This document shows, piece after piece, positions 4,426 to 32,345 of a stretch of DNA of 64,000 nucleotides. The position numbers were made by a program, and so were the translations under genes. The notes below the pieces were generated by a model that worked only from the letters and a program-made list of their open reading frames with translations, did not search any database and had not been told where the DNA came from. Within the stretch, counting starts at the first letter, position 1. Each line of letters begins with the position of its first letter. The stretch comes from a virus: the IMG/VR virus record IMGVR_UViG_3300045988_105285, positions 32,001 through 96,000 of that record, one strand, 5' to 3'.

Positions 4426-4761
4426 TTAAGCAACTCTAATCAAGTTGTAGTTCTTGAATTGTCTCCACTCGCCCTTGACTTCATCCCAATACTTTGTGCA
4501 GTCCTTGCAAGCGTAACCCTTGCCGTTTGGAGTGTAGTCAATATGACTCTCCATCAAAGTGCCGAAAGCCTGACGAATCTCACCATTCATTTTCTGAAAG
4601 TAGAACTCAACGACCTGCTTCTTCATGCGAGCCTTCAGTTTGATAACCTGCCAAGCTTGCTTCAAGCATTCTGCCCAACTCATATAAGCACCTTTAAGCT
4701 GAAAGGCTCTGTGTGCCATATTCATCACTTCTCTCATCATATTCTTAAATGTAGTAGCCAT
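4426..4761 (-). CDS. hypothetical protein, paralog of 19137..19475
   Basis: Alignable by eye over its full length to 19137..19475 (MSW.ECLKQAWQV.KL...VVEF.F.KMNGE.RQAFGTL..SHIDYTPNG). Confidence 0.65.
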   Translation of the reverse strand: MATTFKNMMREVMNMAHRAFQLKGAYMSWAECLKQAWQVIKLKARMKKQVVEFYFQKMNGEIRQAFGTLMESHIDYTPNGKGYACKDCTKYWDEVKGEWRQFKNYNLIRVA

Positions 4762-4795
4762 AATCTTTCAATTTTAAACGTTAAACTTAAATTAC

Positions 4796-4978
4796 TTACT
4801 TTGCAAGTCCGATGCTCTCACGCAAGAAGCTCTTAGCCTCATCGTTGTTCATATTGAGCTTTATTGTTATCATATTCAACATTCTATCAACATCTTTTTG
4901 GGTGTTCATTCTGTTGCTTACGAACTCTATCATAACGAACTTCTGAATCAAGTTTCTTCTTATCATTGAAGTAATCAT
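4796..4978 (-). CDS. hypothetical protein (60 aa)
   Basis: First ORF behind promoter 5070..5077 and the variant leader hairpin. Confidence 0.45.
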   Translation of the reverse strand: MITSMIRRNLIQKFVMIEFVSNRMNTQKDVDRMLNMITIKLNMNNDEAKSFLRESIGLAK

Positions 4979-4987
4979 ATTGCTATA

Positions 4988-5010
4988 CCGTTTTACGAGT
5001 GCCGACTCGG
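4988..5010 (-). promoter_or_regulatory. variant leader hairpin (identical to 19485..19507)
   Basis: Minus-strand RNA reads CCGAGTCGGCACTCGTAAAACGG. Stem is CGAGT/ACTCG with loop CGGC. Confidence 0.5.
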
Positions 5011-23147: not shown

Positions 23148-23573
23148 TTAGTCCTTATAGATTGCATCAAGAATGCTTCTGAAATTCGGATTATCAATAA
23201 CGGCTTGGGCATCTTCTTTGTTCTTGAAGTAAATTGCACCTTCGTTATAATTACCACAAGAAGTAATACCATATTCGTTGGTTCGCATGATATTATGCTT
23301 ATATTCTTGAGAATTCCAGTCCGGTTTCCAATCTCCATTATAGTACTTAGCTATAGTCATTAACCTAGCTAATGCGATTATCTTTCCAGCAATCATTTCA
23401 GGAACTTTTATATCGGCAGGACAAACACCTTTACCAGCTAAAGCAGATAAAACATCCGCATAGCTGATTTCCTTCTTTCTAAGCTTAATAACACCAGCTT
23501 TTAAATCACAATTCTCAATGTCCACTTCCATTCCTTTAGGAATATCTAGGACTATTTTGTTATCGTCTATCAT
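23148..23573 (-). CDS. hypothetical protein (141 aa)
   Basis: The ATG lies 7 nt after the iscB stop codon. Confidence 0.55.
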   Translation of the reverse strand: MIDDNKIVLDIPKGMEVDIENCDLKAGVIKLRKKEISYADVLSALAGKGVCPADIKVPEMIAGKIIALARLMTIAKYYNGDWKPDWNSQEYKHNIMRTNEYGITSCGNYNEGAIYFKNKEDAQAVIDNPNFRSILDAIYKD

Positions 23574-23580
23574 AACTTAT

Positions 23581-24828
23581 TCAACTTTCGGAAGTCCTTT
23601 CTTCCATTAAAATGTTATTTCTAATTCTTTTCAAAAACTTTATCGTTTTGGCACTCACAGCTTGCGTTTCATGCACCTTTACACCATCAATTTTACGCAA
23701 AACAACATTACCATGCGTACTACCAAAGATAAAACACTCCTTGCCTTTCCACCGCACCATGTCGAAACGCTGAAAGCGAGACTTGCCTATCTTGTGCGAA
23801 GCGATGCAAGACCTACGAATACCACCTTTCTTCGGGTTCGCAACGTGCAATGCTCTCGTATGGCGAGGTACACAACGACACATAAAGAAAGTTCTCGACC
23901 GCCTTGCGTGTACGTTCTTGGCAATACAGAAAGCATCGGCTGCATGAGTTTTCTCAATATCATTCTCTATGCGAGTGTGCTTGGTAATGTAACCATAGGT
24001 TAAGTACACATTTCCAAACTCAGCCTTGGCTCGTTCATACACCGACCAACGCATAATGTTCATCACCGCCGCATCACGCAAAGTTGTACCACGCTTGATT
24101 TTCAAATCGAACTCACCACGATGGTAAGCCTTGTGGCAGGTCTCGCACAAAACAACCAAGTTGGATGGGGAATTGCCACCAACCTTGCGGCTCTCCAAAT
24201 GGTGAACATTCAAGATAGGGTCTTTGCTCTTGCCCTTGCAATGAACACACTTATGTCCATCCCTTGCCAAGACGTACTCCCTCACGTTCCAAAAGCCCAT
24301 TTGCTCACCCTGCTGATACTCTTCGCCCTTGATGTCGGAATTCTTGATTTTCTGAGCATCAAACTGAGCAACCTCGATTGTGGTCTTCGTAATTGGAAGT
24401 AACTTATGAACCAAGCGGATAACCTTTAAGTGGCTCTCTACCTTTTGCTCAATACTGGGTGCTAGCCAACCATCCTTTCGTTTGCGGTTGTCAAAACGAA
24501 CCTTGCGGTAACGTGTCTTGCGGTTTCGTCTTGTCCGTCTCAACTCCCTGCGAGTAGAAAGCAAGTTCACAACATCACTTCTTAACTCGACCTGCGCTGC
24601 AAGCAGCTCCTTCTTCTCGGAACTAGCCGAAACGCCAATGTGCTTTGAGCCAGCATCAATGCCAAGGCTCACTTCCTGTGTGTAGATGGTGCTCTCATAA
24701 TCCAACTGAACGACAAACGGAACACGGCTGACTACATGAGCCTTGCCATGGCGAAGAAGATAGCCTATCCTCCCTTCACGCTCAGTCGGCATCAATGCCT
24801 TACCTTCCTTGTTCCTTACGTAAATCAT
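23581..24828 (-). CDS. iscB: IscB RNA-guided endonuclease (OMEGA effector; PLMP + split RuvC + bridge helix + HNH)
   Basis: Motifs in order: KALMPT; LGIDAGSKHIGVS; RRELRRTRRNRKTRYRKVRFDNRKRK; TIEVAQFD; CVHCKG..LNVHHLESRKVGGNSPSNLVVLCETCH; THAADAFCIA; then a C-terminal beta-rich domain. The ORF-track start at 24837 is a TTG; the ATG is at 24828. Confidence 0.88.
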   Translation of the reverse strand: MIYVRNKEGKALMPTEREGRIGYLLRHGKAHVVSRVPFVVQLDYESTIYTQEVSLGIDAGSKHIGVSASSEKKELLAAQVELRSDVVNLLSTRRELRRTRRNRKTRYRKVRFDNRKRKDGWLAPSIEQKVESHLKVIRLVHKLLPITKTTIEVAQFDAQKIKNSDIKGEEYQQGEQMGFWNVREYVLARDGHKCVHCKGKSKDPILNVHHLESRKVGGNSPSNLVVLCETCHKAYHRGEFDLKIKRGTTLRDAAVMNIMRWSVYERAKAEFGNVYLTYGYITKHTRIENDIEKTHAADAFCIAKNVHARRSRTFFMCRCVPRHTRALHVANPKKGGIRRSCIASHKIGKSRFQRFDMVRWKGKECFIFGSTHGNVVLRKIDGVKVHETQAVSAKTIKFLKRIRNNILMEERTSES

Positions 24829-24844
24829 AAAAATCAATTTAAAT

Positions 24845-25155
24845 TAATAAATAAATCTCACCTCGAAAGGTGGTTGTGCGCCCATCGCCAATGTTATGGG
24901 GTGGTTTCTTGTCCGCAGCACCGCAGCTTTCGCCACTTTTAACCACGAACCGCAGAGGACAGAACTTGGACGGACATCCTGACGTGCCTATGCATTCACC
25001 CCTAACGTAGCTCCCTAATTCCATTCGGGGCTGAGGCTAATCCGCTCCGGACGATTGAATGGATAATCGCTGTAGCCTAATCAAAGGCTTCCGGAACTTG
25101 AATCAGGTAATTTGGCACGTATCATTCTTGTGTTCTCCGCATCAATATAGACGTT
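24845..25155 (-). ncRNA. candidate omega-RNA of IscB
   Basis: About 310 nt with no credible ORF and visibly GC-richer. Stems: TCCGGA(25090-95)/TCCGGA(25046-51) enclosing AGCC..GGCT and CGATT..AATCG hairpins; GTGGTT/AACCAC (24901-06/24941-46); CCCAT/ATGGG; and a terminal CACCU-UUCG-AGGUG hairpin (24859-72) followed by a U-rich tail. Confidence 0.6.
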
Positions 25156-25164
25156 TTTGTATTC

Positions 25165-25172
25165 CAAATCTA
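25165..25172 (-). promoter_or_regulatory. -7 box (TAGATTTG), candidate promoter for the omega-RNA/iscB transcript
   Basis: Plus strand caaatcta is the reverse complement of TAnnTTTG. It lies just downstream of the stop of ORF 25190..25459. Confidence 0.4.
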
Positions 25173-25189
25173 CGCCTAAAATTTCCTGA

Positions 25190-25459
25190 TTAAGCTTTGC
25201 TACATCCATATCTCATTAATATAAAAGCACTACGTTGAAGATCCCTCTGTTTGAACGGATTCTTCTCCTGTATTTTATTCACATCTTTTCGTATCTTGCG
25301 GCTTTTCCACTTCTTTGTAAGACGCATAGCCTTTAACAAACGATGGTCTCCGGCTAGCTTTCCAGCATCCTTCTTGCCACAATAATAGCCTTGCCTATAA
25401 GCCCAATATCGGGTTTTATAGACTTGCTTCATTATCTTCTTAGCTTGTCTTATCTTCAT
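25190..25459 (-). CDS. small highly basic protein (89 aa)
   Basis: Lys/Arg-rich: MKIRQAKKIMKQVYKTRYWAYRQGYY...KKWKSRKIRKD. No family assigned. Confidence 0.5.
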   Translation of the reverse strand: MKIRQAKKIMKQVYKTRYWAYRQGYYCGKKDAGKLAGDHRLLKAMRLTKKWKSRKIRKDVNKIQEKNPFKQRDLQRSAFILMRYGCSKA

Positions 25460-31497: not shown

Positions 31498-32345
31498 CAG
31501 CTTGCTTTCTTTGATGTTGTTCTCTCCAAAGGAAAGTCACTCTTCATAAAGTCATTAATCCCTATGTAAGTCCGCTGCAAATCCTTCTCATCGCCTTTTA
31601 AGTCTTCCGTTGCATTAATAGCAGCCTCATTTAATGTCTGTTCGTCAAAGACACCTTTTCTCACCTTGTCGAAATAAGAAAGAATTTCTTTGGTCATCAA
31701 ATGGTCTGCCAGTCTCTCGAAATCCTTATCCATCACTAACGCCATGAAGTCATAGGAGTTTTCAAAAGCAAGTATTGGGGCAAAATCCTTGAACGCTTGC
31801 ATTAAGTTAACGTGCAATTCTTCAAACAGCTTACGGATGATATTCTCATAAGTGCCCAAACAAAGGTTAGTGAGATTATAAAGGATGATTGCATTCGCAT
31901 AAACTCCCGATTTTTCACCAATTCCTAAGTTCTGTAACCTCACCGCGATCTTATCTCGCAACTTATACAAGTCTCCACTAATCTTGTCATAGAACGTCAT
32001 TGCGAATTCGTTATTAAAATCTGCATTAGGAACATAAGCGTCATAATACTTAACCACCTTGCGAAGATTCTTCTTGCAGTCCACCCACCTCTTCTTAACT
32101 TCAAACCTAACGCATTTCTTCTTCAGAATACTCTTTTCGATTTTCTGAATGAAACACTCTGCCAATATCATTTCGACATAGACATACTGCTGTAGATAGG
32201 CTCTGGTAACAACCATAACCTTATTTACTTCGGTTTCGGACATTTCATGCGGAACACTGATGATTGTCTTCTTGCCACCGACATCTAACAGAACTCTTCT
32301 GAAACAATTAACACTAGACATGATGTTTTCTGTTTGAATATTCAA
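31497..32345 (-). CDS. hypothetical protein (282 aa)
   Basis: Long clean ORF. No motif recognised. Confidence 0.6.
   Translation of the reverse strand: MNIQTENIMSSVNCFRRVLLDVGGKKTIISVPHEMSETEVNKVMVVTRAYLQQYVYVEMILAECFIQKIEKSILKKKCVRFEVKKRWVDCKKNLRKVVKYYDAYVPNADFNNEFAMTFYDKISGDLYKLRDKIAVRLQNLGIGEKSGVYANAIILYNLTNLCLGTYENIIRKLFEELHVNLMQAFKDFAPILAFENSYDFMALVMDKDFERLADHLMTKEILSYFDKVRKGVFDEQTLNEAAINATEDLKGDEKDLQRTYIGINDFMKSDFPLERTTSKKAS

Follow-up and report, generated by a model that had tools for sequence, protein, structure and literature searches.

The viral DNA analysed here, 64,000 nucleotides long (IMG/VR record IMGVR_UViG_3300045988_105285, positions 32,001 to 96,000; called the window), contains an intact iscB gene. 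The region directly upstream of this gene, w25103-24852, is very probably the scaffold of an IscB omega-RNA of the HEARO class, lying at the end of a mobile element inside a phage gene that we call orfX. The omega-RNA of the HEARO class is an already known kind of RNA, and the region is an additional member of it. All coordinates are plus-strand numbers of the window, "w" denotes a reading on the minus strand, and all features lie on the minus strand. An omega-RNA upstream of iscB had been proposed in the initial annotation of this DNA, and it is borne out by the HEARO match and by the intact, co-oriented IscB open reading frame (ORF). The parts of the element and of its site are the following.

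24852..25103, minus strand: omega-RNA scaffold, 252 nt (Rfam match, shared similarity from w25103, solo copies, covariation).
23581..24828, minus strand: iscB ORF, 415 aa, with PLMP/RRXRR, RuvC and HNH regions (Pfam, PDB chain matches).
25104..25119, minus strand: putative 16-nt guide CGUGCCAAAUUACCUG, phage DNA forming orfX codons 31-36, which abuts the element (boundary and OgeuIscB guide length).
25081..25209, minus strand: orfX remnant, the host site outside the element (codon-periodic substitutions, uninterrupted relatives).
25098..25103, minus strand: AUUCAA, the first bases of the element, unpaired in the model (kept at nearly all insertion sites).
23576..23580, minus strand: ATAAG, the flank past the distal end of the element (...AAAGUUGA/AU), a putative transposon-adjacent motif (TAM) (distal flanks, uninterrupted targets).

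When an E-value threshold is applied, the Rfam model HEARO (RF02033) matches w25052-24873 over the full model length with 75.7 bits (E 1.2e-14). The iscB ORF is on the same strand directly downstream, and the scaffold ends 24 nt before its ATG. In Pfam the protein matches RRXRR (3.6e-60) and HNH (3e-7), and its best solved relatives are PDB chains of the OgeuIscB type (E 1e-45). Its GIDAG, IEVAQF, NVHH and THAADAF segments align with the catalytic motifs of RuvC and HNH, an LMPT motif is found at the N-terminus, and the whole protein is about 50% identical to the IscB of Geobacillus and Anoxybacillus. The G+C content is 47% in the region and 56% in its core, compared with 39.5% in the whole window.

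The limits of the element were obtained by comparison with relatives. In IMG/VR the window is part of a large group of phages from the human gut, to which GenBank adds one relative (MT835610). The segment w26300-22800 was compared by blastn with 127 related loci (handles beginning with L), and in total about 280 related phage loci entered the comparison. For IscB copies at other genomic sites the similarity is confined to w25103 to about w23578. Phages that lack IscB at the window site match it collinearly as far as w25102 and resume the match at w23564. Upstream of the element there are more than 15 unrelated flanks, and each of them meets the conserved sequence at ATTCAAG, ATTCAAGTT (w25103...); the distal conservation ends just past the iscB stop codon, at ...AAAGTTGA-AT, so that both ends of the element are common to more than 15 sites. 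The mobile unit is about 1.52 kb long, from w25103 to about w23581, and contains only the RNA and iscB. It is a non-autonomous element of the IS200/IS605 type (ISC), with no Y1 (HUH) TnpA inside the unit. The two junctions have only the dinucleotide AT in common; no terminal inverted repeat was seen and there is no target duplication. More than 15 insertion sites among close phage relatives indicate recent mobility.

The first bases of the element, AUUCAA, would occupy the position of a transposon-encoded motif (TEM), which replaces the TAM beside the guide, by analogy with the role described by Meers et al. 2023 (bioRxiv 10.1101/2023.03.14.532601). The other limit of the scaffold is given by solo elements of 330 nt, of which there are six copies (loci L048-L052, about 4664-4995, and a second copy in L016, L016:4946-5277). 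In each of them a 45-nt insert joins exactly w25103-24852 to the final 32 nt of iscB, and within the insert a strong hairpin, CATCCC-TTCG-GGGATG, precedes a U-rich run and thus resembles a terminator. Since exactly w25103-24852 is kept, the 3' limit of the functional scaffold is at or before w24852; and since the scaffold is intact in copies without iscB, it is maintained independently of any leader role.

A full element and a solo one coexist in L016, a hint that additional guides may act in trans. The element is also nearly always placed right before a start codon: at 8 of 14 insertion sites, the ATG of the next phage gene follows 4-8 nt past the ...GAAT end of the element (window 23573-23583 and the distal junctions of L006, L008, L021, L022, L025, L027 and L131).

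The guide is assigned to w25119-25104 because more than 15 flanks join the element at w25103 and because the guide of OgeuIscB is 16-17 nt long (Kato 2022, PMC9640706). The expectation that it lies immediately 5' of the scaffold is thus borne out by the boundary. In uninterrupted form, orfX is a phage ORF of 111 aa (L095:4670-5005) starting at the equivalent of w25209. The element joins inside its codon 36 (G/AT), the window keeps the first 36 codons, and the truncated frame (42 aa) reads 22 nt into the scaffold up to a TGA. No PHROGs family was found for orfX or the flanking small genes.

The target matched by the guide would be CGTGCCAAATTACCTG, with the TAM position directly after it. A search of the guide against related phages had been proposed as a check, and it returned the exact 16-mer protospacer followed by AT-N-R in 52 IMG/VR contigs. 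Among 62 uninterrupted loci, 33 have the perfect protospacer followed by ATGG, and in 25 more the sole difference is T in place of G at the base next to the TAM, equivalent to window 25104. This change is D36Y (e.g. L055, L081, L098 and L102), one of the three most frequent non-synonymous sites of orfX, and it might allow escape from cleavage. It was not accepted as clear evidence of escape, being suggestive only, with several other orfX sites similarly polymorphic.

From the flanks a TAM can be proposed. Six uninterrupted targets, corresponding to six different upstream junctions, all have AT-N-G directly past the junction, the distal flanks at 12 or more sites read AT-W-A, and the element itself starts with ATTC. 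These sequences are consistent with a TAM of roughly ATNR in the IscB sense, for which ATTC would be non-permissive at the occupied site. The proposal is also consistent with the Geobacillus-type loci, where the distal flank ATGAA is the complement of the published TTCAT TAM.

Five groups of copies have the same distal junction and differing guide-side junctions, with the intervening DNA missing: window/L048; L008/L030, L016 and L019; L022/L023; L015/L024; and the L006 group/the L016 solo copy. In these groups AT-N-G follows the junction wherever the uninterrupted sequence is known. A second nearby insertion with recombination between copies, or another process of guide renewal, is possible.

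Folding of the single sequence gave little information. Its energy of -82.4 kcal/mol (z = -1.2) is unremarkable, so single-sequence folding was discarded as evidence and the helices were decided by comparison with related sequences, a check that the initial annotation had also proposed. The structure tested was based on the HEARO consensus, with an added pseudoknot and terminal hairpin. Two alignments were used. A1 consists of 29 distinct close family members. A2 consists of 56 loci with an RNA upstream of IscB genes, found by a covariance model built from A1; its contigs include Prevotellaceae, Lachnospiraceae, Clostridioides, Geobacillus, Anoxybacillus, Spirochaetales, cyanobacterial and archaeal ones, and its homologues reach down to 33-58% IscB identity. 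In A1, 97.8% of the cells are paired versus 31-44% in shifted-register controls, with changes on both sides in 16 pairs (123 cells). In A2, 95.7% of the cells are paired versus 73% in shuffles, and 64 of the 72 pairs have both-side changes. The multi-helix scaffold and its main stems are therefore supported by covariation in both sets. The model consists of the following features.

25044..25097, minus strand: P1 domain (guide-adaptor region), a three-way junction (covariation, Rfam consensus).
25097-90/25051-44, minus strand: P1 closing stem, GUUCCGGA (25097-90) with UCCGGAGC (25051-44) (both-side changes).
25089-74, minus strand: P1 inner hairpin AGCC..GGCU (covariation).
25069-52, minus strand: P1 inner hairpin CGAUU..AAUCG (covariation in the wide set).
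Between P1 and the nexus stem, minus strand: linker GGAUUA (fold).
24887..25037, minus strand: nexus stem, GCC (25037-35) with GGC (24889-87), which closes the core multiloop (covariation).
25009..25032, minus strand: hairpin H2, AGC-CCC / GGG-A-GCU (both-side changes in 5/6 pairs).
24893..25006, minus strand: central stem, GUUAGGGGUG (25006-24997) with CACCCCAUAAC (24903-24893) (covariation).
24952..24987, minus strand: hairpin H3, whose loop CGUCCA (24972-67) is the 5' half of the pseudoknot (covariation).
24911..24950, minus strand: hairpin H4, basal GUUCGUGGU/GCUGCGGAC, apical GUGGC-GAAA-GCUGC (covariation).
24879..24884, minus strand: UGGGCG, which pairs with the H3 loop at 24972-67 and is the 3' half of the nexus pseudoknot (covariation).
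Between the pseudoknot and the terminal hairpin, minus strand: linker CACAAC (fold).
24859..24872, minus strand: terminal hairpin CACCU-UUCG-AGGUG (covariation).

The strings on which the initial annotation built its structure are all present on the minus strand, including TAGATTTG at 25165-72, CACCTTTCGAGGTG at 24859-72, TCCGGA at 25090-95 and 25046-51, GTGGTT at 24941-46, AACCAC at 24901-06 and CCCAT..ATGGG at 24881-24900, and about half of its structural details were right. The idea that the TCCGGA boxes close a junction corresponds to P1 of HEARO, where for one pair of the closing stem 17 relatives have C-G and 10 have U-A (A1, n=29). The AGCC/GGCU hairpin that it placed inside the junction (P1a) has both-side changes in three of its four pairs in A1, and one relative swaps the entire hairpin for UAGUU-GAAA-AACUA. 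The CGAUU/AAUCG hairpin, also predicted there, is invariant or nearly so in the close family and covaries in the distant homologues. In A2 the pairs with both-side changes are 7/8 for the closing stem and 4/4 and 5/5 for the inner hairpins. The Rfam HEARO consensus for P1 has the same architecture, an 8-bp stem with two inner hairpins. Cmscan instead places P1 as a short hairpin at 25052-40, which is compatible with the sequences; this placement was rejected, since it has zero both-side changes whereas the long-range P1 covaries.

In the core, the nexus stem is invariant in the close family, and all three of its pairs covary in A2. The central stem has both-side changes from G-C to A-U in the close family, with 8/10 pairs covarying in A2. 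Three pairs of the H4 basal stem change on both sides in 14 of the 29 close relatives, and in A2 8/9 basal and 5/6 apical pairs covary; the GAAA-capped mini-stem of the initial annotation is part of H4 and is supported in this way. Two other proposed stems were not. GTGGTT/AACCAC is broken in 15 of the 29 close relatives, CCCAT/ATGGG has only wobble changes, and together they are 72.6% paired versus 70% in shuffles in the 56-sequence set. Their bases are used elsewhere: GTGGTT in H4, AACCAC and CCCAU in the central stem, and ATGGG in the 3' half of the pseudoknot. Likewise, the three copies of CUGCGG are present (24950-55, 24921-26 and 24913-18), but as strands of the two helices H3 and H4, two of them in H4, and relatives do not preserve them as a repeat.

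The pseudoknot is an independent test in A2, because the covariance model did not contain it. Both-side changes occur in 5/6 pairs across the 56 homologues. For example, CGUCCA/UGGGCG in the window is replaced in homologues by GUACCA/UGGUAC, UUCACA/UGUGAA or CUCCUCC/GGAGGAG. The terminal hairpin, which had been recognized from the sequence, is swapped in three of its five pairs in 11 of the 29 close relatives (CCCAC-UUCG-GUGGG); all five pairs covary in A2, and the UUCG hairpin is kept, with compensatory changes, even in IscB loci of only 45-58% identity. The U-rich tail that was described with it did not hold. The tail (AGAUUUAUUU) is an AT-rich spacer specific to the family of the window, and the tails of homologues are not U-rich. 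The 5-bp terminal stem together with AGAUUUAUUU fits a loose terminator pattern weakly (1 found versus 0.6 expected), and the hairpin may at most attenuate, because a strong terminator would sever iscB from its only visible source of transcription. Compensatory changes thus occur in almost all helices, the pseudoknot among them, which shows that the RNA structure is under selection.

Several points weigh against reading the region as an omega-RNA scaffold of a mobile element. The score of 75.7 is below the RF02033 gathering score of 83, and at the gathering threshold Rfam gave zero matches across the 64-kb window, although IscB relatives of 44-55% identity have HEARO scores of 105-150 bits. 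We account for this by the diverged P1 domain, which cmscan misplaces. The Rfam score cut-off is the only criterion of HEARO membership on which the region falls short, and it is assigned to the class because of its gene context, fold, pseudoknot and boundary behaviour. The single-sequence fold is thermodynamically not unusual, and the A2 percentages come from an alignment fitted to the model, which favours nested helices. The RNA ends, the processing and the binding of IscB are inferred. The proposed TAM comes from flanks only, and its positions three to five differ between the distal AT-W-A and the AT-N-G of the targets; the present uninterrupted targets are therefore only putatively cleavable. 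A rough search for motifs in all six translated frames of the window found no TnpA-like gene. The occupied allele of the window is not a simple insertion, because the 3' 223 nt of orfX are absent. A pattern scan of IMG/VR with joined flanks did not find an exact empty site with the distal flank of the window; the empty sites predicted in this way for the window site and the L006 site had no matches.

Nevertheless, reading w25103-24852 as the omega-RNA scaffold allows a mechanism to be proposed, with its steps taken over from the IscB family. Transcription would enter the scaffold from the co-oriented upstream phage genes, the element having no promoter of its own for the RNA. The transcript would be trimmed to about 16 nt of flank (w25119-25104) plus the scaffold, to which IscB would bind. 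The complex is expected to cut DNA that has the same 16 nt followed by AT-N-R, be it orfX of related phages in its uninterrupted form or DNA from which the element has been excised, and repair from the element-bearing copy would then restore or spread the element. The occupied site would be spared, the guide sequence there being followed by ATTC.

Among the alternatives, the one with the most in its favour keeps this machine and changes its use: the main benefit would go to the phage, which would use it to attack, or to home into, co-infecting relatives that have intact orfX, instead of rescue after transposase-mediated excision. We regard it as possible but doubtful. The element is in a phage and no transposase was seen, the protospacer is intact in the 52 related viral contigs, many of them of the same dataset, and the occupied allele replaces the rest of orfX, as would be left by gene conversion spreading from flanking homology. 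Homing endonucleases in phages act similarly (review PMC13565253). However, the argument is purely inferential, the present targets are only putatively compatible with the TAM, and more than 15 different sites need true transposition or some other joining process, not homing alone. Tentatively, since the guide matches intact orfX in these 52 contigs, the element may circulate among co-occurring gut phages as a device for RNA-guided homing or competition. The guide side re-made in five copy groups, each time beside AT-N-G, would give the nuclease new guides. If such a device exists, the 330-nt solo RNAs could add guides in trans and D36Y could be an escape allele.

A quite unlikely alternative is that the structured region no longer acts as a guide RNA and is only the leader at the 5' end of the iscB mRNA, or what is left of a formerly active, decaying element. 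The expression and activity of the RNA are predicted, a transposase was not detected nearby, and the occupied allele is not a clean insertion; moreover, translation of the truncated orfX frame into the first 22 nt of the scaffold could disturb folding. All this is outweighed by the compensatory changes, by the scaffold staying intact in solo copies that lost iscB, by the intact catalytic motifs of IscB, and by the insertions at more than 15 sites in closely related phages.

The initial annotation had also proposed that the region begins with its own promoter of the TAnnTTTG type and that a 13-nt inverted repeat brackets it. Both strings exist, but neither belongs to the element. The box at 25165-72 lies 62 nt outside the mobile unit and forms codons V13-D14-L15 of orfX. 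In 8 of 28 distinct orfX alleles synonymous changes turn TAGATTTG into TAGACCTAG, and L004, L051 and L052, with the same insertion, are among these. Reading of the sequence shows no TTTG at -33 to go with the box. On the minus (coding) strand of the window TAnnTTTG occurs 61 times, about one per kb, versus 34 times on the plus strand, a bias compatible with a Bacteroidota host of the phage. The arms of the repeat, 25101-13 and 25179-91, are 92% complementary. Arm a corresponds to orfX codons 7-11 (N7-L11) and reads AATCGTAAAATTC in L004, L051 and L052, and arm b is made of the last 10 nt of the guide and the first 3 nt of the element. The repeat is therefore not a transposon-end hairpin, being lost in relatives with the same insertion. 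Inverted repeats of the same quality number 17 in the window versus 3.7 +/- 1.9 in shuffles. A small "orf84" from ATGATACGT, with TAGATTTG as its promoter, was also considered and rejected, as the codon-periodic substitutions place the start of the ORF at w25209.

A self-contained omega-RNA gene, with a Bacteroides-type promoter at 25165-72 and the repeat as a transposon-end hairpin or part of a longer RNA, is the least credible of the alternatives: the box and the repeat are there, the box is about twice as frequent on the coding strand and such repeats are about four times commoner than in shuffles, but the box and arm a are orfX codons outside the unit boundary at w25103, both motifs are destroyed in L004, L051 and L052, the upstream DNA is unrelated at other insertion sites, and with a start near 25158 the RNA would have about 55 nt ahead of the scaffold, not 16-20 nt. 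As box and repeat neither belong to the element nor are conserved with it, the RNA has no promoter of its own here, and its transcription must start upstream, in phage DNA. Meers et al. 2023 found that IscB omega-RNA biogenesis relies on transcription from outside the element and that the elements are preferentially co-oriented with the upstream gene. All neighbouring genes in the window are co-oriented with the element, which fits this requirement.

In public databases these genes have other names. The protein identical to the window IscB in NCBI nr (DAU08027.1) is labelled "NinG recombination protein [Caudoviricetes sp.]" and another source gives McrA; its 90% cluster has 666 members, and PHROGs phrog_119 ("HNH endonuclease") matches it with an E-value of 4e-57. 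The IscB genes of phages appear to be systematically mislabelled, and from these labels the IscB elements in phages are probably under-counted. No paper specifically on IscB elements in phage genomes was found in a limited literature search, which is no proof of absence.

In two distant viral contigs, other RNAs were observed a few kb downstream of iscB: a type-P5 twister ribozyme at L036:6778-6827 (44.8 bits, above gathering) and a Fusobacteriales-1 RNA at L042:4938-5056 (96.6 bits). There are no tRNA genes in the 64-kb window.

There is little new in the RNA itself, as the literature already describes IscB omega-RNAs, including how they fold and that they rely on transcription from outside the element. 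Our analysis adds a covariation-backed structure and an exact guide for a subfamily missed by the Rfam threshold. The context of the element is more interesting than the RNA, with its many sites in gut phages, solo-RNA derivatives, guide-side remodelling and missed annotation. It offers a natural population for RNA-guided homing in phages, with occupied, uninterrupted and solo-RNA alleles and possible escape variants. Tool development is also possible, from a compact 415-aa IscB, a 252-nt scaffold and many natural guide/flank pairs for reading the TAM.

When compared to the HEARO family (RF02033), the window RNA has the same position and strand relative to iscB, a P1 with two hairpins, the nexus stem, the central stem with two hairpins, the loop-tail pseudoknot and the conserved UUGGCGA segment. 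It differs in having the six unpaired bases AUUCAA before P1, whereas the HEARO consensus and the Geobacillus copies begin with P1, and in having a terminal hairpin, of which the RF02033 model stops short, as was also noted by Meers et al. 2023 (bioRxiv 10.1101/2023.03.14.532601).

With the OgeuIscB omega-RNA (7XHT, 7UTN, 8CSZ; Kato 2022, PMC9640706) it shares the 5' guide of 16-17 nt, the guide-adaptor domain, the nexus stem, the central stem, the nexus pseudoknot, a single-stranded linker and terminal hairpin structure. The guide adaptor is a three-way junction in the window RNA and a single 14-bp hairpin in OgeuIscB. Between the nexus and central stems the window RNA has a hairpin on the 5' side, whereas stem-loop 3 of OgeuIscB is on the 3' side. 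There is one terminal hairpin instead of two, and the protein has 415 aa versus 496 aa.

The ISGst5-type elements of Geobacillus (Meers et al. 2023), whose IscB is about 50% identical to that of the window, are also non-autonomous, with the scaffold at the transposon end, the guide outside the element and transcription from outside. Their far-end TAM likewise begins with AT in the IscB sense, ATGAA compared with about ATNR in the window, and the solo elements in phages resemble their protein-free mini derivatives. Unlike them, the window element is found in phage genomes, with no TnpA seen, and it ends at or next to the iscB stop codon, whereas the Geobacillus copies have a terminal segment of about 60 nt with a DNA hairpin past iscB. 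In L135-L138 and L143 (Geobacillus/Anoxybacillus) this hairpin is TCCCCGACTT...AAGTCGGGG, in the conserved segment between iscB and the ATGAA TAM. Nothing like this segment exists in the phage element, which raises the question of how TnpA could recognize the distal end. An equivalence of AUUCAAG with the UUUGAAG motif of the Geobacillus copies was rejected, as the Geobacillus scaffolds reach 32 nt further 5' and start with GTCAAC.

Finally, the free-standing homing endonuclease genes of T4 (Seg/Mob) are similar in arrangement: a small nuclease gene lies between conserved phage genes, often directly before the next start codon, and the uninterrupted target is found in related phages. The window element differs from them in that its target would be recognized by an RNA guide plus a short motif, not by protein, and in its occurrence at many unrelated sites.

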